This document shows positions 39,057 through 55,320 of a stretch of 64,000 bases of DNA, in pieces. The notes beneath the pieces were generated by a model, which was given only the letters and a program-made list of their open reading frames with translations, did no database searches and was not told the origin of the DNA. Made by a program: the position numbers and the translations under genes. This DNA comes from Spirochaetota bacterium. GTDB lineage: Bacteria > Spirochaetota > UBA4802 > JAFGDQ01. How positions within the stretch are numbered: the stretch's first letter is position 1; every line of letters begins with the position of its first letter. Location of the stretch: positions 2,541 through 66,540 of the forward strand of contig JAXHTS010000081.1 of the NCBI GenBank assembly GCA_034190085.1, in the 5' to 3' direction.

Positions 39057-39515
39057 ATGATTAGAAAATATGATAACATTATAATCCAGACAGTTGGCAG
39101 GATTATGATACCATTTATGCAGGTTTACAGCCTTTATGTGTTGGTTCATGGGCATGGAAGTCCTGGCGGAGGTTTTCAGGGAGGTTGTATCCTGGCTGCA
39201 AGCTTTATCCTAATGGCGGTAGCCTATGATATAGAGGAGATAAACAGACGCTTTAAGGAGAGGAGGGTTCTACTTCTTTGCAGCCTGGGTGTTTTTCTTT
39301 ATGTCGGAACTGGTTTTCTGTGTATGTTTTGTGGTGGTAATTTTTTAGATTATGGCTTTCTTAGTAAGATTTTGCCAACGGATGAGATTATGGCGAGGTA
39401 CTATGGGATGGCGATAATAGAGACTGGTGTACAGATTACGGTTATGGCTGTGATGGTCACTATATTTCTTGATTTAGCAACAAGTGGAAAACATGAGGGT
39501 ATGTTAAAGGAATAG
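39057..39515 (+). CDS. mrpB: MrpB/MnhB subunit (MbhF-like)
   Basis: GHGSPGGGFQGG motif typical of MnhB. Confidence 0.7.
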   Translation: MIRKYDNIIIQTVGRIMIPFMQVYSLYVLVHGHGSPGGGFQGGCILAASFILMAVAYDIEEINRRFKERRVLLLCSLGVFLYVGTGFLCMFCGGNFLDYGFLSKILPTDEIMARYYGMAIIETGVQITVMAVMVTIFLDLATSGKHEGMLKE

Positions 39516-39519
39516 GATT

Positions 39520-39897
39520 ATGGAATATATTATAGGTAAAATTAATTATTGGATCTATATAGTTCTAATACTTACCGGTTTTTTTGCCATGATGGCAAAG
39601 GGCAATCTTATGAAGAAGCTGATTGGTATGAATATCTTTCAATGGTCAATAATTCTCTTTTTTGTCTCCATCGGAGCGAAGAAGGGTGCTACTGTGCCTG
39701 TTCTTGGCGGACATGGCGCTGTGCATGATGTTATTCATGCGGTAGATTACATAAATCCATTGCCCCATGTTCTTATGCTTACTGCTATTGTAGTTGGTGT
39801 GGCAACAACTGGAATTGCATTGACACTGCTAATTGTGCTGTATAAGAAGTATGGTACCTTAGAAGAAAATGAAATAATTGAGGAGTTGAAAAGATGA
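39520..39897 (+). CDS. mrpC: antiporter subunit C (MrpC/MnhC, NuoK-like; MbhG-like)
   Basis: 125-aa 3-TM protein, NuoK-like. Confidence 0.75.
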   Translation: MEYIIGKINYWIYIVLILTGFFAMMAKGNLMKKLIGMNIFQWSIILFFVSIGAKKGATVPVLGGHGAVHDVIHAVDYINPLPHVLMLTAIVVGVATTGIALTLLIVLYKKYGTLEENEIIEELKR

Positions 39898-41411
39898 TTA
39901 TGGAACAATTGCCAGCACTTATCGTTGTCACTCCTTTAATTCTTGCTTTTATTGTTCCTATTGTAGGATGGTGGAATAAGAAGTGGTGTTATCCAATAGT
40001 GTTTATTTCGCTTTTAATTAGTTTCTTATCCTCAATTGGCATTATCCATACTGTCATCACTGAGGATCAGCCGATTCACTATTACATGGGTGGTTGGCCA
40101 CCTCCCTGGGGTATTGAATATGTTATTGATTATTTAAATGCACTTGTGCTAGTGTGCGTTGCTTTTGTTTCCTGGGTAGTTTCCCTTTATGCGAAGAGGT
40201 CTGTTGAGAAGGAACTTCCCGAATCAAAGGTGCCTTTATTCTATACACTCCTGTTGCTGCAGGTGGCAGGTCTGTTAGGGATTTGCGCAACCGGCGATAT
40301 GTTTAATCTCTATGTGCTTTTAGAGATTGCCTCTTTTGCAGCATATGCAATTATAGCAATGGGAGAGCGGGGTTCTGTCTTTGCCTCTTTTCGGTATGTG
40401 ATCTATGGTACAATCGGAGCCTGCCTCTATCTCATCGGAGTGGGGTATCTATATATTAGTACTGGTTCTCTTAATATGGCGGATTTATCTCAAATTTTGC
40501 CTGAGTTAATAAATTCTAAAGCAATATTAGTTGGATTTGCTTTTTTCTTGGTGGGTGTTGCGATAAAAATGGGTATTTTCCCCCTTCATTCATGGTTGCC
40601 GGATGCATATACCCTAGCTCCATCTGCTGTAAGTTCATTGCTTGCTCCATTATTTACCAAGGTCGGTGCATATGTTATTATCAGATTGATGTTTACTGTG
40701 TTTGAGCCTTCATTTTCAATAGATGATTACCCGGTGACAGAAGTATTGGGTTGGATATCAGCAATTGGAATAATTTTTGCCGGAGTAATGGCACTTTCTC
40801 AGACTGATTTGAAACGGATGTTTTCATATTTGATTGTAGCGGAGATGGGTTATATAGTGATTGGTATCGCTTCAGCAAACAGGCTAGGATTAACCGGTTC
40901 CATACTTCATATCGTCAATGATATATTTATGATGACATGCTTGTTTACTGCAGTTGGTGCAATCTATTATCAGACAGGTACCAGAAATATCTATGAACTT
41001 AAGTGTTTGCATCGAAAAATGCCTATTACCCTGGCTGTCTTTGTAGTTGGGGCTTTGTCAGTTGTTGGGGTTCCCCCTTTCTGTGGCTTCTTTAGTAAAT
41101 GGTATTTGATACTGGGCACGATTCAATCAAAGGAATGGATGCTTTTAACAGTGCTACTAATTAGCAGTTTAATCAATGCGGTTCTTTTCTTCCGTGTGCT
41201 TGAAAATGCCTATATTGAACCACGTGAAGAGGAAGATCATGCTCATCATCATGATGAAGTACATCATAGTGTTGTTGCTTTAGATGAAGTGCCTATGAGT
41301 ATGCTTATGCCAATGATAGTAATTGCTGTTGGTATTATTCTTCTTGGAATTTTTAGTGGAAATATTGTTAATAATATAATTGATTTTGCCATACCTTCAT
41401 CATTATTATAA
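39894..41411 (+). CDS. mrpD: antiporter-like large subunit (MrpD / MbhH-like, paralog 3) with His-rich C-terminal tail
   Basis: 505 aa; NuoM/N-family blocks; C-terminus EPREEEDHAHHHDEVHH. Confidence 0.8.
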   Translation: MIMEQLPALIVVTPLILAFIVPIVGWWNKKWCYPIVFISLLISFLSSIGIIHTVITEDQPIHYYMGGWPPPWGIEYVIDYLNALVLVCVAFVSWVVSLYAKRSVEKELPESKVPLFYTLLLLQVAGLLGICATGDMFNLYVLLEIASFAAYAIIAMGERGSVFASFRYVIYGTIGACLYLIGVGYLYISTGSLNMADLSQILPELINSKAILVGFAFFLVGVAIKMGIFPLHSWLPDAYTLAPSAVSSLLAPLFTKVGAYVIIRLMFTVFEPSFSIDDYPVTEVLGWISAIGIIFAGVMALSQTDLKRMFSYLIVAEMGYIVIGIASANRLGLTGSILHIVNDIFMMTCLFTAVGAIYYQTGTRNIYELKCLHRKMPITLAVFVVGALSVVGVPPFCGFFSKWYLILGTIQSKEWMLLTVLLISSLINAVLFFRVLENAYIEPREEEDHAHHHDEVHHSVVALDEVPMSMLMPMIVIAVGIILLGIFSGNIVNNIIDFAIPSSLL

Positions 41412-41755
41412 AGATTACGATGAAGGACATTCTATTTGCTAATGTTCTCAACATTTAATAGTATGCATAATTATAAATAGATGTTTTTAACACTCTGTTT
41501 ATATGCTAGTAGTACCCGCCAATTCTTCAAGGGTCTAAAAGTAATTGACGTGTTTAGTTTGTTGAGTGTATAATTATGTTCACAAGTTAGTTGCCACTTT
41601 AATCTTCTAAATAGAGAAGAGGTTATTGGCTGCAAGCAGATATGAGAGACACATAGCCTTATTATGAGGAGACGTGTCTTGTCATTATCAACCGAGATTG
41701 AGAACCTTTACCTTTCTGTGAAATTATATATTAAATTTTAATTAAATAAAAGATT

Positions 41756-42022
41756 TTGAATAGGAAGAATAAAAGCACTAGAAGACTAATATTTGGATAT
41801 TCAACAATAGGAATTCAGTTAGCCGTCACTCTATTGCTTTTTGTATATGGAGGATATAGGTTAGATAATTATTATAAAACAACTCCCTTGTTTGTCATTG
41901 CGGGTACAATTATTGGAATGATTGCAGGCTTTTACAATTTGCTTCAGGGCATAAAGCAGATTGAGGAAAGTACGAAAAGAGAAAAAGAAGAAGTTAATAA
42001 TACAAAAAGCAAATGGCTATGA
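41756..42022 (+). CDS. AtpZ/AtpI-like small membrane protein preceding the F-ATPase operon
   Basis: 88 aa, two TM helices, positioned immediately upstream of atpB, as for pfam ATPase_gene1-type proteins. Confidence 0.5.
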   Translation: MNRKNKSTRRLIFGYSTIGIQLAVTLLLFVYGGYRLDNYYKTTPLFVIAGTIIGMIAGFYNLLQGIKQIEESTKREKEEVNNTKSKWL

Positions 42023-42081
42023 TTATTTAGTTTTTTCATAATTAACTATGTTTAAATTTTAATATTTAAGAGGAATTTAAT

Positions 42082-42942
42082 ATGCTTCAGCTTTTGCACA
42101 CTATGAAGTATTTAATAGTATCTGGTGGTGGCCATGGTGAAGAGGAATCTGTTAGCGAAGTTGTTATTCATCACCTTACGGATCATGTTATTACCTCAGG
42201 TTTTATAGGTAAAATAAACGAGCAATTTCTCAACACAAAGCTTTTTGGCATCTTTGATATGAGGATTACCCGGTGGGTAATTATGATGTGGATAGTATCA
42301 ATTTTATGTATGTTAATTTTTATACCTCTTGCTAAAAAAATTAAGAAGGAAAAGAATGGTTCAAAATCTAAATGGATTAATCTGTGGGAGGTCCTCATCG
42401 GTTTTATTCACGATGATATAGTAGAAACGAATTTTGACGCACATTATGTAAAAAAGGCTATGCCATATATGTGCAGCATATTTTTCTTTATTTTATTTTG
42501 TAATTTGTTGGGTCTTGTGCCGGGGATGTCAACCGCTACTGGTAACCTTGCAGTAACTGGCGGATTAGCCGCATTTACGCTTATAGGAATGATTGGTGTT
42601 GGGATGATTAAACAGGGTCCTTTATGGATTTTCACGGGGATAGTTCCCAAGGGTATTCCCTTCTTTCTATTCCCCTTAATGTGGGTAATAGAGTTGTTGG
42701 GTCTGTTTATTAAACCCTTTGCACTGACTATTCGACTTTTTGCGAATATGACGGCAGGGCATGTAGTTGTTATTATCTTTTTATTTATTTCAATCATGTT
42801 TCACAGTCTATTAGTCGGAATAGGATCAGTTACTGGCGCACTGATGATATACTTACTTGAACTATTAGTATCTTTTATTCAAGCCTATATTTTTACTTCA
42901 CTTTCAGCAATGTTTATTGGGCAGTCAATGCATGCTCATTGA
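42082..42942 (+). CDS. atpB: F0F1 ATP synthase subunit a
   Basis: RLFANMTAGH (the conserved Arg-containing helix) and C-terminal ...SLSAMFIGQSMHAH. Has an N-terminal extension. Confidence 0.85.
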   Translation: MLQLLHTMKYLIVSGGGHGEEESVSEVVIHHLTDHVITSGFIGKINEQFLNTKLFGIFDMRITRWVIMMWIVSILCMLIFIPLAKKIKKEKNGSKSKWINLWEVLIGFIHDDIVETNFDAHYVKKAMPYMCSIFFFILFCNLLGLVPGMSTATGNLAVTGGLAAFTLIGMIGVGMIKQGPLWIFTGIVPKGIPFFLFPLMWVIELLGLFIKPFALTIRLFANMTAGHVVVIIFLFISIMFHSLLVGIGSVTGALMIYLLELLVSFIQAYIFTSLSAMFIGQSMHAH

Positions 42943-42983
42943 GTGAGTTTTAAATTATAATAATTTGATTACAGGAGGAATAG

Positions 42984-43211
42984 ATGGAAGGTTTAGGTCT
43001 ATCTTACTTTGCAGCGGGTATTGGTGCGGGCTTAATAGTGCTTGGCGCTTCGTTTGGAATTGGAAAATTAGCAAGTACAGCTCTGGAGAGTACAGCCCGT
43101 CAACCAGAGAGTAGTGGTGATATTAGAACAACAATGATTATTGCTGCTGCATTAATAGAGGGTTTTACTTTTTTTGCTTTGGTTGTAACATTTATGTTAG
43201 CTACTAAATAG
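42984..43211 (+). CDS. atpE: F0F1 ATP synthase subunit c (H+-type)
   Basis: 75-aa hairpin with the ARQPE loop and a carboxylate in AALIEGFTFFAL. No Q/S-T/Y Na+-binding constellation. Confidence 0.9.
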   Translation: MEGLGLSYFAAGIGAGLIVLGASFGIGKLASTALESTARQPESSGDIRTTMIIAAALIEGFTFFALVVTFMLATK

Positions 43212-43275
43212 TATGCTTTAGTAGCGAGGGCTTTTACCAATGAAGTCCATAAATTGAAAATATGGATAGTGAAAT

Positions 43276-43794
43276 ATGGATGCTATAAGGGAAGGGCTTT
43301 TAAAAGTTGATCCGGGATTATTCCTTTGGACAGTAATAACTTTTCTTGTTTTGTTCTTGATATTATGGAAAGCTGCTTGGAAACCGATAATCGAGGCGCT
43401 TGGAGCTAGAGCAGAAAAGGTGAAGGGCGACATTGAAAGGGCTGAAAGCAATCGTATTGAGGCTGAAAAACTACTAGCTCAGCATAAAGAGATGATGGAT
43501 AAGGCTAAGGATGAAGCGAACAACATTATTACAGAGAGCAGATCTCATGCTGAAAAGGTAAAGAGTGATATGATTGAGAAGGCCAACGAGGAATCAAAGG
43601 AGATTATTGAAAAGGCTAAAAGGGAAATCAATTTGGCAAAGGATAAGGCTATAATTGATTTGAAAGCTGAAGTGGTTAATTTATCTACGGATATTGCATC
43701 TAAGATAATAACCACAAATTTAAAACCAGAGGATCAAAGGGATTTGGTAGAAGAGGTTTTGAAGAATTTAGAATCACAGAAATTTGTTCAATAA
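43276..43794 (+). CDS. atpF: F0F1 ATP synthase subunit b
   Basis: N-terminal TM helix then a long charged coiled coil. Confidence 0.85.
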   Translation: MDAIREGLLKVDPGLFLWTVITFLVLFLILWKAAWKPIIEALGARAEKVKGDIERAESNRIEAEKLLAQHKEMMDKAKDEANNIITESRSHAEKVKSDMIEKANEESKEIIEKAKREINLAKDKAIIDLKAEVVNLSTDIASKIITTNLKPEDQRDLVEEVLKNLESQKFVQ

Positions 43795-43997
43795 TTGCTT
43801 ATTTATAGGAGAACGCGTAATAAATTATTATCAAGTTCCGCATAAAAGATTGTGAGCATTTATTAGAATGAGTATACAGAAGTAAGGAATTTGGCACTAT
43901 TTAATGTGTATAGTAGAGAAATATAGTTATTAACGAATAAACTCCCACAAGTTTGGGAGTAAATAATAATTAAATCACTAATTATAGGGATAGTAGT

Positions 43998-46095
<2,098 letters not shown>

Positions 46096-46125
46096 TCGTA
46101 GAAATGAATAGAAAGGATTGAGGTT

Positions 46126-47013
46126 GTGGCAACTCAAAAAGAAATAAGGAAGAGAATACAGTCTGTATCTACTACAAAGAAGATTACTAAGACCATGGAA
46201 ATGGTTGCAACTGCAAAGATGAAGAAGATGCAGGACCGCCTTAATGCCACCAAACCATATTCATTAAGAACAAAAGAGTTAATCTCTCATATAAAAGAAT
46301 CTGGAATAATGGATAGTGATATACCTCTGATGAAAGAGAGAGAGGATCCCAATCGTGTGCTTTTAATTATGATAACGGGTAATCGTGGGCTTTGCGGCGG
46401 ATATAATATGAATGTGATTGATAATACCCTCAGTTTGAAAGACAAACTCGAAAGGGATGATGGGAGAGAGGTCTTACTCTATGCGATAGGGAAAAAGGGT
46501 AAAAATTATTTTGATTATATGGATATTCCGATTTATCAATCTGTTCAGAATAGAGAGGATAAATTAACCTTTAATGATGCCTCAGAGTTTGGTGATGAAT
46601 TAATAGATTTATTCTTAAAGGGCGAGATAGATGATGTTTATGTATCATATACTGGGATTGTCTCATCAACTTCTCAGAAGCCAGCAATTATAAGATTATT
46701 GCCCATAACATATACAATGGATGTTGATAGTGAAGATTTATTAACTAAGATGCCAGTGCAATATATCTTTGACCCAGAGCCATATAAGGTTTTGTCATCA
46801 TTATTGCCGTTATATATTAAAGTAAGTATCTATACATATTTGTTAGAATCGGGATTTTCAGAACAATTTGCACGAAGGGTCGCAATGAAAAATGCAACAG
46901 ATGCGGCTATTGATATGGTAAAGGAACTAACTGTTAAATATAACAGAGCCAGACAGGCAAAAATAACAAATGAGATAGCGGAGATTGTGGGCGGCGCATC
47001 AGCGCTGGAATAA
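46126..47013 (+). CDS. atpG: F0F1 ATP synthase subunit gamma
   Basis: N-terminal IRKRIQSVSTTKKITKTMEMVATAKMKK and C-terminal ...ITNEIAEIVGGASAL. Confidence 0.9.
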   Translation: MATQKEIRKRIQSVSTTKKITKTMEMVATAKMKKMQDRLNATKPYSLRTKELISHIKESGIMDSDIPLMKEREDPNRVLLIMITGNRGLCGGYNMNVIDNTLSLKDKLERDDGREVLLYAIGKKGKNYFDYMDIPIYQSVQNREDKLTFNDASEFGDELIDLFLKGEIDDVYVSYTGIVSSTSQKPAIIRLLPITYTMDVDSEDLLTKMPVQYIFDPEPYKVLSSLLPLYIKVSIYTYLLESGFSEQFARRVAMKNATDAAIDMVKELTVKYNRARQAKITNEIAEIVGGASALE

Positions 47014-48450
<1,437 letters not shown>

Positions 48451-48594
48451 GATACAGGATTATTCGTAATAATTTAGGTATCTGTTGTTTAGCTACTATT
48501 GTATAGTAAATGATGAGTATTCATAAAAGAGCAAGCGGAATGGTTAGGGCCTGCCTTACTATTAAAGTATATAATAACTTAAAAAGATATAGAT

Positions 48595-48993
48595 ATGGAT
48601 AGAAAAATAGAATGTAGTATAGTTACCCCAGATAGGATTGTATTTGAGGGTCAGGCTGATCTTATGGTAATTCAGGCGCATGATGGAGAGGTAGGTTTTA
48701 TGTATAATCATGCGCCATTTATATCCGAATTAGGGAATGGTGAGGCCAGGATGCGCAATGGTGATCATACTGAGTATCTTATTGTGGAAGGTGGTTTTGT
48801 CGAAATACGAGATAATACACTGATCGTGCTAGCAGAAAATGCTTACAGGAAGGATGAGCTTTGTAAAGCTGAGATTCAGGAGAGTATTGAGGAAATAAAG
48901 AATATCCCAAGAATCATTGACACTGAAGAGGGATTAAGGCTTGAAACTGAGCTTAAAAAACAGAAGGCACGGTTAAAAGTCGCTTCCAGGTGA
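48595..48993 (+). CDS. atpC: F0F1 ATP synthase subunit epsilon
   Basis: 132 aa, beta-sandwich plus helical hairpin pattern, last gene of the operon. Confidence 0.85.
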   Translation: MDRKIECSIVTPDRIVFEGQADLMVIQAHDGEVGFMYNHAPFISELGNGEARMRNGDHTEYLIVEGGFVEIRDNTLIVLAENAYRKDELCKAEIQESIEEIKNIPRIIDTEEGLRLETELKKQKARLKVASR

Positions 48994-49596
48994 TGAATTA
49001 TACCCATTCAAATTTGTTTATTAATAATACCCACTTTTATAATCTGAACAAAATTAAACTGCAACTTTACAACTCCCATCATAGCCAACATTAATAAATA
49101 ATCCCAGAATTAATTTAGGTTCAACATTAAACAAAGAATTCTTTTTTATAATTGTGTTGAATTAAGCAACGCTAATATGGTTAATTCAATAACTATATTT
49201 AATTATAAATGTATCCGATATTATAGATGGATCTCTCTTTAATTGTTGTAACTTCGAAGTTAGTCATCAATTTTTGAGAACTTGCTCTTTTATTTATTTC
49301 CCGCCAGCTGGTTGAGAGACTTCAAAATTAGTGAGATCAATTTGTTTCTCTTTCTCTCTATGCTTGGAGGGGTATTATTGGATTTACTATTATGACTATG
49401 TCACGTTACAGCGGCAAAGGGCAGGTATAAAAATTAACTTGCATTTTAGGTTTTTGTTTCACAAGATTACTATAATATGGCAGATTTTTTTATTTTTTTC
49501 AGAATATTCTCATATAATGATTTATTATTAATGATGTAATGTTGTAGAATATAAATTGTAACCGCTACTTTACGCAGTAAGTCATAAAATTAGATT

Positions 49597-51786
49597 TTGA
49601 TGAAGAATAAGATGATAAAAGAAGGGGACAGCATTGAATTAGACTTTTATGAGAAGAGATTTGAAGAGTATGCAGAGTTTCCAGAAAAGAAAGCTGATAG
49701 TGAACTGATTGGGGAGGATGGCGAACTAAATGAGGAAAGTGATGGAATTAGTGAATATGGGGAGTTGGAGGAGATTGCGGATTTTAGAAATGAGGTTGTA
49801 GAATCAATTCCAATAATTGATGAACTTGTTGATAGCACTTTTTTTGATGGAGGGCATATAGACAGAAGAGTCATTGATACAATTGATGTTGAATTGTTAT
49901 CTGCTGAGGTTGATACTCTTACACAAATAGTGGGAGTTGAGGATGCGAACTCATTGATTTCATCTAATGAAGATGATGATGAGACACGAGATAGGGTAGA
50001 ATATACAAATCTCGTTGAAGAAGAGAATTTTGCAGCAGTTGCATTTGCTGATAGGTCAATTGAAGATGTCAAAGATACTGAGGTATTGTCAGAAGATGAG
50101 ACAATTACTTTATCTACAGATGAGTTAGAGAACATCATAAATGATCCAGAGCTGGATGATTCTTATTCCTCGTCAAAAGAAATTGAACAAAATAATTATG
50201 AGGAAGCGAAACAGGGGAATAAAAATAGTGTCAATTTGAATGAAACACTAAATAATAAGAACAAAAATACGATTACCCTAGAGGTGCCCAATTGTGTATT
50301 AGATAAATTACCAGAAGATTTTAACATGTCTGAACTTAGTATGGTTAATTTAAAGGAGGCTGAAGAGATTGCAAATGAGGATTTTCAATTTACAACTGAG
50401 GATGAGTTTATCAAAGAGTTAGATGAATTAGATCTTATGCCGATACTTAATACTACTAATGAAGAACTTAAAGATGATGTAATTACGGATGGATATGTTG
50501 AAGAGAAGGATGTGGTTGGGAAGAGTGAGGAGAGAATGACAGATTTAGAAAAATCAAAAAAGGTATCAGTGAAACATGAAGAGATTGATCAAATGATCTT
50601 AGAGGAGGTTGCTAACTCCAATGGTATGGATTTAAAAGGAAATGAGAACCAATCAATTATAGAAGAAATACAAGATGAAAGTATAATAGTGATAGATGAT
50701 ACTCCTGAGGAATTAAATAAGAAAGAGGTGAAAGAGGGTACAGAAATTATTGAATCAGTTGAAGAAAACCAAGAGGGTGAAATGGATTTATCTGTGGGGG
50801 ATATGGAAGAGCCTATTGTCAATGATAGATTAGAATTACATGATGATGAGGGAAATGAATCATTTGATTTGCCTACGGGATCGTTAAATATTGATAAAAC
50901 TGAAGATAATTTATATATAATTGATGATGAGGTGATGGTAGAGGATGAGGAGAGTGAGTCTATATTTGAGGATGACGAGTTAGAAAAGATAAGTACTGGG
51001 ATTGTAGAAATAGCGGAGGGTGAAGCAATAATTCTAACTGAGACAGATGCACAGGAGAATCTTAGAGGTCTTGGTGGTATAACAAGTGATATTACCCCTG
51101 ATAGTGAAGATATGTTTAATGATACAGGGGAAAAATTTGTAATGAAAGATGAAGAAATAGACTATATTGATCGTTCATTTACAGGAAAGGGATTTGGGGA
51201 TTATATCAAGGAGGATAAGGGGGACGATGATGAGGTTGAGGATAAGGGGATTGATTCCATGTCAGAATTATTAGGTCTTAAACTTGATGAGATGGATGTA
51301 ATTGAAGACAAGATATATGAAAATGGAAATGGAGTGAATGATCATTATAAACTTGCCAATACCCTAACGGCTGTATCAGGTGAGACTAAAAGAGACGATG
51401 TTCCCTTTAGGGAATGCACATATCTACTTCCAATGGATAAGAGTTTAATAGGCGAAGAGAAAAGAAGCATTGAAGTTGATTTGTTATCATCAAGCGCATT
51501 AGTTGTTGAGGAGGACGTAAAGGAGATCATTAGAAGATTGGAGAGAAAGTCTAGGAAGAGGGTGGGTGATACAGAGGATATAGCTGATATAAGCGATGAT
51601 ATTATAATAATTGAAGAAGTTTCCGAAAAGGATGAGCGACAGGAGCTAGATCAAAAAGAGATGAAAAAGTTATTGAAATACCTAAATGGACTTTTAGAGA
51701 AATTGCCCGAGAATGTAATAGAGAATTTTGCCAAATCTGAGTATTATGAGCTATATAAAAAAGCATTAGAAGATTCTGATGGTTAA
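49597..51786 (+). CDS. very large, extremely acidic (D/E-rich) low-complexity protein; function unknown
   Basis: 729 aa dominated by E/D/I/N with no recognisable catalytic motif. The C-terminal ~60 aa are more ordered (LLKYLNGLLEKLPENVIENFAKSEYYELYKKAL). Its stop abuts the start of the next gene. Confidence 0.6.
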   Translation: MMKNKMIKEGDSIELDFYEKRFEEYAEFPEKKADSELIGEDGELNEESDGISEYGELEEIADFRNEVVESIPIIDELVDSTFFDGGHIDRRVIDTIDVELLSAEVDTLTQIVGVEDANSLISSNEDDDETRDRVEYTNLVEEENFAAVAFADRSIEDVKDTEVLSEDETITLSTDELENIINDPELDDSYSSSKEIEQNNYEEAKQGNKNSVNLNETLNNKNKNTITLEVPNCVLDKLPEDFNMSELSMVNLKEAEEIANEDFQFTTEDEFIKELDELDLMPILNTTNEELKDDVITDGYVEEKDVVGKSEERMTDLEKSKKVSVKHEEIDQMILEEVANSNGMDLKGNENQSIIEEIQDESIIVIDDTPEELNKKEVKEGTEIIESVEENQEGEMDLSVGDMEEPIVNDRLELHDDEGNESFDLPTGSLNIDKTEDNLYIIDDEVMVEDEESESIFEDDELEKISTGIVEIAEGEAIILTETDAQENLRGLGGITSDITPDSEDMFNDTGEKFVMKDEEIDYIDRSFTGKGFGDYIKEDKGDDDEVEDKGIDSMSELLGLKLDEMDVIEDKIYENGNGVNDHYKLANTLTAVSGETKRDDVPFRECTYLLPMDKSLIGEEKRSIEVDLLSSSALVVEEDVKEIIRRLERKSRKRVGDTEDIADISDDIIIIEEVSEKDERQELDQKEMKKLLKYLNGLLEKLPENVIENFAKSEYYELYKKALEDSDG

Positions 51787-53937
51787 GTGATGGGTTTATT
51801 AGAAAAAGCGATGCAATATAAGAAGGATATGAACAGCGTTGGTGCGGAAACACTAGCTGACAATAATAATTTACCTACTGAGACAAATTTCGTCGAAGAC
51901 GAGATGATTCATAATAACAACGGATTGAATGATTCAATTGATTTTGGTAATAGAGAGGACATAAATGGAGGCGATGAATTTTTAATAAATGACGAGGATT
52001 CATTAGATGTTGGGTTTGAGAGCGATCCTATAACAGCATCCCAAGAGGAAAATGGTAAAACGCTATCTGAAATCGAAGAAGTGAAAACAGGGATAGATGA
52101 TGAACTCTTTCAATTGCCAGATGATGATGATCAATCTTTAAAGGAGGCTTTGAACGAACAGAAATCGAAAAAACAGGAGAGTGTCATTGATTCTTCTGTT
52201 GAGGAAGGAATTGTTAATTCAAAAACAGATGGAGGGATCAAAGAGGATGATTTTAAACCTTTAGGTCCTGAGGATGAACCCATAATTGCGGATATGAAGG
52301 AGGGTGTTACTGAAGGGGCAGATGATGTAGAAAGCGATAAGATCGATATTGATAGAGATGTTGATGTTGGTCTTGATGATATATTGAAGGAAGAGTCTAT
52401 AATTGCAGGTGAATTGTCAGAAGCGGTCTATCCCGATACAATGGATTCAGGTGTAGCCTTTGACGATATTGATGCAGGGGCGAAGAGTCCTCCCACATGC
52501 TATAGGGATTATCAAGCATTATACGAGTTCCAGAAAGAAATTGAAAAAATGGGAAGCAGAAGAGAACTGTTTGATTTGATTTTATTCTTAGTAATGGGAC
52601 AGATTGCTATTTCTTCCTCTTCAATTATTTCAATAGACCTGAATGATGAGAAAAGGTGGACTCTAACATGTTCAAAGGGAATAAAACCAAATGAAGAGAA
52701 TGTTGCCTTTGATTTTACAGAAGGCATAGTGAATGAATTGAGAAGAGGAATTGTGGATATTGAAGAGTATAAGGATAATGTAGAATTCAGAGAGTTATAT
52801 TATCAGTTAACCTCAATAGATGCAAGGTTACTGGTGCCTATAGTTGATAATGATAACCTATATGGCACTCTTATCGTTGGAGAGAAGTTGAATACCCTCG
52901 ATTATACAGAAGGAGAGAGAGATTTTATACTCTCTGTATGTAACTCCTCAGCAATTGCATTATCCAGAATGAATGTAATCGAGGACTTAGTAAGTCAAAA
53001 TGCAATCTATAAGAATGATATAGATGTTATACAATATATTGACAATTTTCATGAAAAAGTCGTTAATGTTAACAGTATAAAGGAATTGGAAGAGATTGTT
53101 ATCAGTGAGTTTGAAAAATTGAGTATTGTGTGTTTTGGAGTTTTTATTAAAGATGAAAGGGATGAAGATTATGTGCCAATTATTGTTGAGAGGGAAGATC
53201 TTCTGTCGTTAAATGAATCAAATTTTAGGATAAAGGGTGATAATCCATTTATTGAATATGTGCAAAAAATTAGACATAATGAAAGACTAAAGGATTTTGA
53301 TAGATTAAAGGATATTCATAATCTTTTTGGTGAGAGTCGATTAAAAAAGATGTCAATCCTGTGGATATACCCTTTTAAGATTGGCATTCATCTGATAGGA
53401 TTTATTACCATATTTGATATCTTGGATAAAAATAGGGATTGCGAGATTGAAAAAAAGTTATCTAGGTTTTCAAAGATAATCTTCCACTACATCCTGAATA
53501 TTAGGAGTTATGATATTCATGAAAGTATGTATGTTGATAATGTAGAGATTTTACTGAAAAGAATTAATCAAGAATTGCAAAAAGCAAAGGATCTGCAAAT
53601 ACCCTTAACACTTGTCCTCTTTTCAATAAAGAATTTTAAGCGTTATCATAATGTTTTTGGATATAATGAAGCAAAAAAAATGATAGATAGCCTAATTGAG
53701 GTTATAAAGAGCAGATTGGGAGAGGATGATTTTTCTGTAAGATTGGCAAGACATAAAATTCTCATAGTCCTTCCTGGCAAGGATAAGAAATATGCTATCC
53801 CCTTTGCAAATGTGATAAGAAATGAGATTACTAAAGGATTTAAGAAGAAGGAGATGCAGCTTTTAATAACATTCCTGACGTCTGAATATCCTGAAGATGG
53901 GGATGATCTATACACCCTTTTGGATTGCATTGATTGA
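51787..53937 (+). CDS. acidic N-terminal region, two GAF-like domains and a C-terminal degenerate GGDEF-like domain (likely non-catalytic signalling protein)
   Basis: The N-terminal ~240 aa are D/E-rich. Two GAF-like domains follow. The C-terminus reads PLTLVLFSIKNFKRYHNVFGYNEAKKMI...SVRLARHKILIVLPG...ITFLTSEYPEDGDD, which aligns to the GGDEF fold with the GG(D/E)EF site replaced by RHKIL and a truncated end. Confidence 0.65.
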   Translation: MMGLLEKAMQYKKDMNSVGAETLADNNNLPTETNFVEDEMIHNNNGLNDSIDFGNREDINGGDEFLINDEDSLDVGFESDPITASQEENGKTLSEIEEVKTGIDDELFQLPDDDDQSLKEALNEQKSKKQESVIDSSVEEGIVNSKTDGGIKEDDFKPLGPEDEPIIADMKEGVTEGADDVESDKIDIDRDVDVGLDDILKEESIIAGELSEAVYPDTMDSGVAFDDIDAGAKSPPTCYRDYQALYEFQKEIEKMGSRRELFDLILFLVMGQIAISSSSIISIDLNDEKRWTLTCSKGIKPNEENVAFDFTEGIVNELRRGIVDIEEYKDNVEFRELYYQLTSIDARLLVPIVDNDNLYGTLIVGEKLNTLDYTEGERDFILSVCNSSAIALSRMNVIEDLVSQNAIYKNDIDVIQYIDNFHEKVVNVNSIKELEEIVISEFEKLSIVCFGVFIKDERDEDYVPIIVEREDLLSLNESNFRIKGDNPFIEYVQKIRHNERLKDFDRLKDIHNLFGESRLKKMSILWIYPFKIGIHLIGFITIFDILDKNRDCEIEKKLSRFSKIIFHYILNIRSYDIHESMYVDNVEILLKRINQELQKAKDLQIPLTLVLFSIKNFKRYHNVFGYNEAKKMIDSLIEVIKSRLGEDDFSVRLARHKILIVLPGKDKKYAIPFANVIRNEITKGFKKKEMQLLITFLTSEYPEDGDDLYTLLDCID

Positions 53938-54052: not shown

Positions 54053-54496
54053 TTGCGTGTGAGTAAGAGTGGAGCAATGCCCAAGAAAATAATGTATTTT
54101 CAGAAAGGTGAGAGGATTATTAGAGAAGGAAGACTGGATAAACGGATGTATATAATTTTAGAAGGGAATGTAAAGATATCACTATCTGATGGGGATGAAT
54201 CGATTATAGTGGCAAATTTGAAGAGGGGTGATTTCTTTGGAGAAATGTCACTCTTTAATAATACACCCAGGAGTGCAACCGCAACTGCCGATGGGGATGT
54301 AAAGCTTGCATATATTGATAATATTAAGCAATTAAAGGCGTTCCTTATGGTGAATCCCACATTTGCTGCTAAAATGGTTCATATTCTGGCCTTGCGATTG
54401 GCAAGGACGAATGAAATTCTCGTGAATGAATTCAAAGAACTTAACAAATATAAGTTTATGAGAGATGTGTCTGGTCTGCATTATTTTGTTGATTAG
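54053..54496 (+). CDS. stand-alone cyclic-nucleotide-binding (cNMP/CAP effector) domain protein
   Basis: GDFFGEMSL and RSATATA phosphate-binding cassette; 147 aa with no DNA-binding domain. Confidence 0.7.
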   Translation: MRVSKSGAMPKKIMYFQKGERIIREGRLDKRMYIILEGNVKISLSDGDESIIVANLKRGDFFGEMSLFNNTPRSATATADGDVKLAYIDNIKQLKAFLMVNPTFAAKMVHILALRLARTNEILVNEFKELNKYKFMRDVSGLHYFVD

Positions 54497-54567: not shown

Positions 54568-55320
54568 TCAATTCTTCTCTTGTTGTTTTAATATTTCTCT
54601 TGTTAGGTTCATATAATCAATAGCCCCATTACTATCAGTTTTATACTCATATATTGTTTGTCCCCAACTCGGGGCTTCCTGTAGAGAAACATTCTCCCTG
54701 ATAACCGTATCAAAAAGTTTACCAGGAAAGCGTTCTTTTATTTCATCTATTACCTCTCGGTTAATAATCTTTCTGGCATTGTACATCGTTCCGATGATGC
54801 CAGTAACCTCAATATTCTTATTTAGCCTCTTTTTTACAAGCTGCACTGCTTCAAATAGATTGTACATACCATGAAAGGGCAGGAATTGAAGTTGTACAGG
54901 AATAAATATCTCTTTAGCATAACAGAGGGAGTTAAGGGTTAAGGTTCCAAGCGATGGAGGACAGTCAATCAATACATAATCATAACCCTGCAGGTCTTCC
55001 AGTGAGTCCTTGAGCAAGTACTCTTTTGCGGGAATTGGTAGAAATTCAATTCCTCTAAGCTCTAAACAGGATGGTAGGATATGAAGTCCATATCGGTCAA
55101 TCAGTGTCTCTTCAAAGGATATATCGCCCTTGATTACATCAAAGATGCTATATTTTAATTCCTTAGATTTAATGCCAAAGTGATAGGTGGACTGAGCTTG
55201 AGGATCAATATCAATCACAAGAACTCGTTTCCCCTGCAATTGCAGCCCCGCTGCAATGTTAACGGTGCTGGTGGTCTTGCCTACTCCGCCCTTATTATTG
55301 GAGATTGATATTATTCTCAC
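54568..55320 (-). CDS. ParA/MinD-family ATPase (orphan ParA/Soj-like)
   Basis: Deviant Walker A NKGGVGKTTSTVN; 250 aa; no parB nearby. Confidence 0.85.
   Translation of the reverse strand: MRIISISNNKGGVGKTTSTVNIAAGLQLQGKRVLVIDIDPQAQSTYHFGIKSKELKYSIFDVIKGDISFEETLIDRYGLHILPSCLELRGIEFLPIPAKEYLLKDSLEDLQGYDYVLIDCPPSLGTLTLNSLCYAKEIFIPVQLQFLPFHGMYNLFEAVQLVKKRLNKNIEVTGIIGTMYNARKIINREVIDEIKERFPGKLFDTVIRENVSLQEAPSWGQTIYEYKTDSNGAIDYMNLTREILKQQEKN

Follow-up and report, generated by a model that had tools for sequence, protein, structure and literature searches.

What would a spirochaete do with a strongly acidic, largely disordered protein that is encoded directly in front of a GGDEF protein stripped of the catalytic residues of a diguanylate cyclase? 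The question is raised by two adjacent genes, here called A and B, in a 64,000-nucleotide stretch of a Spirochaetota metagenome-assembled genome (MAG; GenBank assembly GCA_034190085.1, contig JAXHTS010000081.1, positions 2,541 to 66,540), which we refer to as the window and whose features lie on the plus strand unless stated otherwise. NCBI names their products 'hypothetical protein SVZ03_16830' (A) and 'diguanylate cyclase' (B). The A open reading frame (ORF; 49597..51786) specifies 729 aa if read from a TTG and 724 aa in the NCBI model, which starts at the ATG at 49612, and the B ORF as called (51787-53937) specifies 716 aa from a GTG. An earlier inspection of the letters, made without database searches and called the sequence-only reading below, had described a translationally coupled pair of giant proteins meeting at TAA-GTG-ATG; the junction is present (51784..51792), while 'giant' is overstated for proteins of ~720 aa. 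Because 52 relatives of B begin MGLL (the family N-terminus being MGLLEKA), its true start is the ATG at 51790, 3 nt after the A stop codon, and gene B (51790..53937) then encodes 715 aa with an N-terminal motif, an acidic linker, a GAF domain, a GAF-like domain and a GGDEF domain that is both remodelled and truncated. We conclude with high confidence that A and B form one module and that it is non-catalytic. Our overall reading, to which we give somewhat less than an even chance, is that A as an acidic scaffold and B as a pseudo-cyclase sensor are translated together and form a complex.

The linkage of the two genes is strict. A genome scan with an A-family profile yielded 53 loci, from Spirochaetota MAGs save for a few bins labelled as other phyla or 'uncultured bacterium', and all ORFs in the loci were searched with our own hidden Markov models (HMMs) of both families. 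A B-family gene lies immediately downstream on the same strand in 51/51 loci in which the sequence extends past A, the three loci without B all ending at a contig edge, and in the reverse test, a metagenome scan with B alone, an A-family gene lies directly upstream in 38/38 testable loci; these counts include duplicate or closely related loci and are not independent events. The gap between the genes is -1 to +5 nt in 49/54 pairs from genomes and lookups and in 38/38 metagenome pairs (87/92 in all), and the pair persists, with a spacing of 1-5 nt kept, where the proteins are just 25-30% identical. The flanks vary: the atp operon precedes the pair in 33/54 loci, and one of two blocks comes after it, in 26 loci a minus-strand M23 peptidase gene with an unknown gene, bactofilin and PdxA behind it, and in ~21 loci an FGE-sulfatase-like gene that leads to PAS-SpoIIE and PAS-histidine kinase genes. 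The supposition that this is a genuine conserved pair, with gaps typical of translational coupling, has thus held up. Word-indexed protein searches returned just 4 matches for B and 6-10 for A because of the low-complexity composition, and the family became visible through pattern-based genome and metagenome scans and an exhaustive profile search.

The C-terminal domain of B (aa 575-715; 53512..53934) aligns to GGDEF by profile methods. Pfam PF00990 matches residues 584-713 with 41.8 bits against a cutoff of 23.8, and a 49-sequence family profile of the region matches GGDEF domains in the PDB at E=7e-10. The Pfam match covers model positions 10-145 of 161, in agreement with the truncated end seen at first sight; the domain stops before the last helix, and every relative ends ...LLDxI(D/E). 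In alignments to the solved cyclases 5m3c and 6eib, the metal-binding D-x-D-x-F-K-x-x is replaced by SIKNFKRY (53623..53646), the metal-binding Asp having become Ser and the second Asp Lys, and of the guanine-contacting residues the Asn has become His and the Asp has become Asn. The GGDEF position reads ARHKI (53746..53760; family consensus D-R-(N/H)-K-(I/F)), so that the reported loss of GG(D/E)EF is real and the proposed substitute 'RHKIL' was shifted by one residue. B is not a cyclase, because the whole family has other residues in place of both Asp of the D-x-D, of the Asn and Asp that contact guanine and of the GGDEF motif; judged by these residues, it cannot make cyclic di-GMP (c-di-GMP).

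The replacements are themselves conserved. Among 49 full-length relatives the first site reads S/T-I-K-N-x-K/R-R-Y, with the Lys in 48/49 and both the Asn and the following invariant Arg in 49/49, and the second site reads R-x-D-R-N/H-K-I/F, with the Arg after the Asp in 47/49 and the Lys in 45/49. Because the K, N, R, R and K are near-invariant, we read the site as selected for a new function and not as decayed, and the near-invariant Lys/Arg at the old Mg/phosphate site argue for a different binding function. The canonical inhibitory site (I-site), an RxxD five residues before the GGDEF position, is GEDD in B (53719..53730), and its Arg position is occupied in the 49 relatives by S29/G8/A7/Y2/E1/N1, Arg never being among the residues tallied. 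With the I-site Arg missing family-wide, the canonical basis for c-di-GMP reception is gone, and of the earlier proposal of a sensor or receptor in place of a cyclase, the non-cyclase half is supported and reception through the I-site is not. One B-family gene (locus L030, 8698-10687) is split into two overlapping ORFs, by a frameshift or an assembly error.

Ahead of this domain, B opens with a 32-residue motif (51790..51885; family consensus MGLLEKAL.YK..IN..G.ETLID.I.GPAET) that is near-invariant among 52 relatives and is modelled as a helix at residues 2-23; a role as membrane anchor was rejected for this helix, whose hydrophobic moment is just 0.27. An acidic disordered linker follows (aa 33-235; 51886..52494), with 30.5% Asp plus Glu (D+E), 7.4% K+R and a predicted local distance difference test score (pLDDT) <40. 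Its length and sequence vary in the family with acidity kept (mean 26% D+E), and it carries short motifs, DELFQLPDDDD in 19/36 relatives and LGPEDEP in 11/36. The acidic start of B thus spans ~235 residues, close to the ~240 first reported; B beyond it is ordinary (17% D+E, 14% K+R), and the net charge of the whole protein is -66. GAF domain 1 (aa 236-400; 52495..52989; pLDDT 70-85) is supported by Pfam GAF_2 at residues 260-392, whose 27.8 bits fall barely short of the cutoff of 28.6, and by a 49-sequence family profile that matches GAF domains of phosphodiesterases and PtsP in the PDB (E=3.5e-9). It lacks the NKFDE cyclic-nucleotide signature (N-K-x5-24-F-x3-D-E); in 2/51 sequences chance matches to this signature occur outside GAF1.

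The second, GAF-like domain (aa ~430-570; 53077..53499) shows an alpha/beta pattern with pLDDT 50-79 in the AlphaFold2 (AF2) model of B. In Foldseek searches the best matches of that model are tandem-GAF structures (PDE2A 1mc0, E=6e-10, 370 columns), PDE5/6 and phytochrome GAF-PHY, and it aligns over ~500 columns with phytochrome-linked cyclases (5llw). On profile and model evidence the architecture of B is therefore GAF, GAF-like and GGDEF, and of the two GAF-like domains first proposed, one is supported by sequence and the other at fold level only. This order is that of GAF-GGDEF cyclases (NCBIfam DgcA NF041606; 5llw), in which sensor domains precede the output domain, and GAF1 of B is closest to the GAF of DgcA. 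B differs from DgcA in reaching 58 bits against an NF041606 cutoff of 370, in lacking the catalytic residues and in having a 235-residue N-terminal extension.

Protein A contains 29.6% D+E, carries a net charge of -144 and ranks as the most acidic among the 36 long ORFs of the window (mean 12.8% D+E). The acidity is specific to the pair and not to the lineage, because 406 ORFs neighbouring the pairs average 12.5% D+E, just 9 of them reaching 19%, against 22-31% across the A family and the mean of 26% in the B linkers; lineage-wide compositional noise does not account for it. Within A, aa 1-225 and 286-435 vary in sequence and length among 48 relatives and keep their acidity. Between these variable segments stands a conserved island (aa 226-285; 50272..50451; ITLEVP..DKLPEDF..L..VNLKEAEEIANED...LDELDL), with column conservation of 0.5-0.7 and pLDDT 54-66. 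The C-terminal half (aa 436-729; 50902..51783) is present in essentially all 48 relatives (occupancy ~1.0, conservation 0.4-0.86) and ends in a three-helix module (51628..51774), which is the superfamily signature and the most conserved segment of A (0.78-0.86). Conservation peaks at aa 691-725, where the family consensus is LLkYLDgLFEkLPE.vIknFA.SEYFdLY.KvL. In the AF2 model of A, pLDDT is <50 for 549/724 residues, and the C-terminal module alone is confident (pLDDT 74-83). The description of A as disordered thus agrees with the model, and its description as almost entirely low complexity fails at the conserved segments 226-285 and 436-729; a tandem-repeat expansion was considered, and no meaningful repeats were found.

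A has homologues at E-values down to 3e-39. It has no Pfam or NCBIfam match, the Pfam copy searched being one without PF27359, and no transmembrane-like segment, the maximal 19-residue hydropathy being 0.99 in A and <=1.44 in 49 relatives. PF27359 'TP_0179' is recorded on seven distant relatives (P0007-P0010 and P0012-P0014) and not on the window protein, and A is assigned to the TP_0179 superfamily through transitive homology to such PF27359-bearing proteins (E=7e-23; profile search). An exhaustive profile search of this superfamily gave 2,157 cluster representatives, 1,504 of them at E<=1e-10, and the module sits at the extreme C-terminus in nearly all of the 150 top-ranking matches among the 2,157. 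P0011 (1404 aa), a candidate A-B fusion, turned out to belong to the A family and to be doubled in length by extra acidic sequence; linker length seems free to vary enormously. Another A-family member, of 890 aa (locus L001, 5326-7998), has a PAS domain inserted in its acidic linker, and the scaffold can evidently acquire a sensor domain.

Relatives of the pair occur in cultured and pathogenic spirochaetes. The Leptospira-like locus L062 has, in this order, an atp operon, a small SLBB gene, a TP_0179 gene and, at a distance of 1 nt, the gene of a 746-aa protein for which no Pfam domain is recorded, yet which is a full-length relative of B (E=4e-55). In Leptospira interrogans, LIC_11247 (Q72SX5), whose sequence we took from the supplement of PMC12943098, matches the B-family HMM at E=2e-43 as a full-length member. 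Like B, it has an MGLLER start, an acidic N-terminal region, a GAF core and a dead GGDEF (IGQGKY); unlike B, to which it is ~25-30% identical, it has the replacement motif GQGK and not DRNK/ARHK. UniProt labels it 'cGMP-specific phosphodiesterase'. A 2026 catalogue lists it as a newly recognized GGDEF protein without catalytic residues and without an experimental test, places it in the core genome (99.18% of 365 isolates), singles out only LIC_11706 and not LIC_11247 for a kept allosteric site, and does not mention a partner gene or pairing (PMC12943098). Its upstream neighbour LIC_11246, by the arrangement of the Leptospira-like locus, would belong to the A family; LIC11246 is listed only as 'conserved hypothetical' (PMC2387172).

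The TP_0179 family is named after TP0179 of Treponema pallidum, a 'hypothetical protein' that is reported as recombinant and appears only in population-genomic papers (PMC8789261). Its members among the A relatives share the C-terminal module and the hyper-acidic composition. Treponema-like loci differ in their downstream partner, a protein of ~340 aa (6724-7746 in L064, 4681-5721 in L119) whose gene is 1 nt away from the TP_0179 gene or overlaps it and which is not detectably related to B, with an hhalign probability of 0.1-2% and 6 bits in hmmsearch. These partners begin MSLLEKA or MGLLQKAL, and thus share with B the first 7-8 residues of its N-terminal motif alone. Both loci also contain PBP1, TP_0183_C, DivIC and two MptE-like genes.

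From these observations a mechanism can be proposed. A and B would be two subunits of one cytoplasmic spirochaete module, made from one transcript and probably by coupled translation. B would be a pseudo-enzyme that keeps the tandem GAF plus GGDEF order of a ligand-regulated diguanylate cyclase, with its old Mg/GTP site rebuilt as a conserved Lys/Arg cluster and its last helix missing, and A would be a long, largely disordered polyanion that acts as a scaffold, offering a few conserved islands for docking and the three-helix module at its C-terminus. This module could bind the N-terminal motif of B as B leaves the ribosome. The two are suggested as contact surfaces because each is the most conserved part of its protein and they are encoded a few nt apart, and because the N-terminal motif survives in the Treponema-like loci, where the body of the partner has been replaced; that they are specific docking surfaces is, on this sequence evidence, about an even bet. 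By analogy, the docking of GGDEF proteins on acidic or hub proteins has precedents in DgcP-FimV (PMC7033161) and CdgA-RomR (PMC3983030). The GAF domain(s) of B may then sense a small molecule and pass the signal on to the GGDEF domain, where the rebuilt basic pocket might hold an anionic ligand, namely a metal-free nucleotide, polyphosphate, or acidic stretches from A or the B linker. As output, the acidic scaffold would come to recruit different partners or take up a different place, a step that we propose with low confidence.

Several points weigh against this proposal. Physical contact between A and B is something that we infer; the spacing of the genes is typical of coupled translation, which is probable, and is compatible with coupling without proving it, and no A-B fusion appears among the 150 best superfamily matches. 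Both structural models have low overall confidence (mean pLDDT 51 for B, from a multiple sequence alignment of 4 sequences, in which residues 1-239 are disordered except for helix 2-23, and mean pLDDT 43 for A, from 10 sequences), and the low values of A may partly reflect the shallow alignment instead of true disorder. The GGDEF region of the B model has pLDDT <50, so that the 'basic pocket' comes from sequence alignment and not from structure. No ligand signature is recognizable in GAF1, and a family profile of residues 395-585, around the second GAF-like domain, has no relevant match in the PDB. Moreover, the neighbourhood, with ATP synthase, M23 peptidase and bactofilin, and signalling genes, points to no single output.

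The alternative that survives best is a more specific version of the proposed complex and is compatible with it. A would be a spirochaete analogue of the acidic hub proteins of cell poles or division sites (HubP/FimV, PopZ, RomR). With its C-terminal helices as the means of self-assembly, it would build a polyanionic matrix or condensate that draws B and other clients to a cell pole or septum. Its long acidic disordered region with a small terminal helical module fits this picture, as do the recurrent envelope, shape, division and flagellar neighbours (M23 peptidase and bactofilin in 26 loci, PBP1 and DivIC, and flagellar genes in L001). HubP/FimV have an extensive acidic cytoplasmic region that serves as a docking platform (PMC12918733), a feature that A shares at its 29.6% D+E, and the GGDEF protein DgcP is localized by just such an acidic cytosolic region of FimV (PMC7033161). 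Two distant relatives of A are labelled 'FimV' by the Joint Genome Institute (JGI), a label for which we found no support in Pfam or NCBIfam. Unlike HubP/FimV, however, A is soluble and comes from a family not related to theirs, with neither LysM nor a transmembrane segment by Pfam and hydropathy, and no Pfam or NCBIfam match to the C-terminal FimV tetratricopeptide repeat (TPR) domain occurs in A or in the 'FimV'-labelled relatives; moreover, its commonest neighbour is the ATP synthase operon and not envelope genes. We regard the polar-hub version as possible but unlikely.

A further extension, which we think rather improbable, is a spirochaete-specific hub in which a polyanionic matrix with a C-terminal module captures any 'MGLLEKA' protein encoded downstream. 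In the lineage of the window, this client would be a pseudo-cyclase whose metal-free basic pocket reads a nucleotide, polyphosphate or the scaffold's own acidic tails. If true, it would provide a new docking code, from C-terminal module to N-terminal peptide with co-translational assembly, and a new use of the GGDEF fold, present in the agents of syphilis and leptospirosis.

PopA and PelD are degenerate-GGDEF c-di-GMP receptors. A second alternative, in our view a doubtful one, is that B belongs to their kind, with A as its effector or partner, and that the module reads c-di-GMP. A degenerate GGDEF is the classic receptor architecture, and the Bdellovibrio protein CdgA (GVNEF) offers a precedent: it uses a dead GGDEF for signalling and not for synthesis, binds c-di-GMP and docks on the hub proteins RomR and Bd2492 (PMC3983030). 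The conserved Arg/Asp at the old active site (R-x-D-R-N-K) could contact the dinucleotide in a non-canonical way, and Leptospira has a rich c-di-GMP network (PMC12943098). However, receptors of the PopA/PelD/CdgA type bind c-di-GMP through an intact RxxD I-site, whereas B has no Arg there, nor do its tallied relatives, and it has a rebuilt basic site and a domain truncated before the last helix; LIC_11247, as noted, was not singled out for an allosteric site in the Leptospira catalogue (PMC12943098).

A third possibility, very unlikely in our judgement, is that the polyanions have a role linked to energy metabolism, as buffers or sensors of cations (Mg2+, Ca2+, polyamines), which would explain their place after the ATP synthase operon. 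The net charges of both proteins favour it, and an atp operon lies directly upstream not only in the 33/54 loci but in L062/L063 and, judging by locus numbers, in L. interrogans. However, this synteny may be inherited, the pair lies away from the atp operon in L001, L005, L025 and L064, the median atpC-A gap of 243 nt suggests separate transcription, and a pure ion buffer would have no need of conserved islands and invariant termini. As for the idea that the genes are independent and adjacent through shared ancestry alone, with the acidic stretches of A as tolerated filler, we give it little credence: the interaction evidence is all indirect and most loci come from related uncultured Spirochaetota, which makes the counts phylogenetically non-independent, but the linkage is unbroken in both scans despite rearranged flanks, and at 25-30% identity the 1-5 nt spacing is kept, as is the acidity of A (22-31% D+E) without sequence conservation.

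The pair is best filed among the degenerate-GGDEF signalling proteins, as a variant whose acidic partner is unusual and obligate, and not as a new category. The sequence-only reading had called the arrangement not a described system; its parts are in fact catalogued (PF27359, and LIC_11247 in PMC12943098), and its pairing and function are undescribed. The polycation-interacting role that the same reading suggested is speculative. We found no functional study of A or B in the searchable literature, and as far as that literature shows, there is no report of the strict pairing, of the absent I-site, of the basic site remodelled under selection or of the conserved termini. Syphilis, leptospirosis and Lyme disease are all caused by spirochaetes, a group in which a large part of the conserved genes is uncharacterized. 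Here three isolated catalogue entries, namely PF27359/TP0179, LIC_11247 and the 'hypothetical' and 'diguanylate cyclase' calls in MAGs, are joined in one strictly conserved two-gene module, and B emerges as mis-annotated both in MAGs (as a cyclase) and in UniProt (as the phosphodiesterase of LIC_11247). The module is widely conserved among the sampled spirochaete lineages, has relatives in pathogens and could be approached in Leptospira biflexa or L. interrogans. It raises the questions of what pseudo-cyclases without an I-site do and how bacteria use very acidic disordered proteins.

Directly upstream of the pair in the window lies a complete F1Fo ATP synthase operon (39057-48993), with atpC ending at 48993. 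This synteny, which may be inherited or functional, extends to lineages whose A and B are just 25-30% identical, to L062/L063 and, if locus numbers are a guide, to L. interrogans. The AT-rich spacer between atpC and A (48994..49596), announced by the sequence-only reading as a leader of ~600 bp, measures 603 nt at 27.5% GC, and probably holds the pair's own promoter; the family median of 243 nt for this distance (n=32) suggests transcription separate from atpC. Comparison with 31 other atpC-A spacers found no conserved sequence, and no remnant of a small SLBB gene such as that of L062 was found in the spacer. A regulatory RNA in the leader was rejected for want of an Rfam match (the best, at E=0.45, being located inside B), as was a special promoter, promoter-like sites being not in excess over shuffles. 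Two imperfect AT-rich palindromes (~49120-49161 and ~49241-49272), 78-82% self-complementary, are present in this leader and are not conserved in other loci.

Downstream of B, a stand-alone cyclic nucleotide monophosphate (cNMP)-binding protein of 147 aa (54053-54496; PF00027, 80 bits) is followed by a convergent ParA/MinD-type ATPase gene on the minus strand (54568-55320; AAA_31, 168 bits). The cNMP-binding protein is present where it had been reported; as parts of the module we rejected both genes, since neither occurs in the conserved downstream blocks and the cNMP gene is absent from all other loci. A defence system was likewise rejected, there being no PADLOC family for A or B, and the cNMP-binding protein shows PADLOC similarity solely to the sensor portion of Pycsar TIR effectors. 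The Ser-rich minus-strand 'ORFs' in A and B (e.g. 49647-50138 on the minus strand) are not genes and mirror the GA-rich, acidic coding strand.

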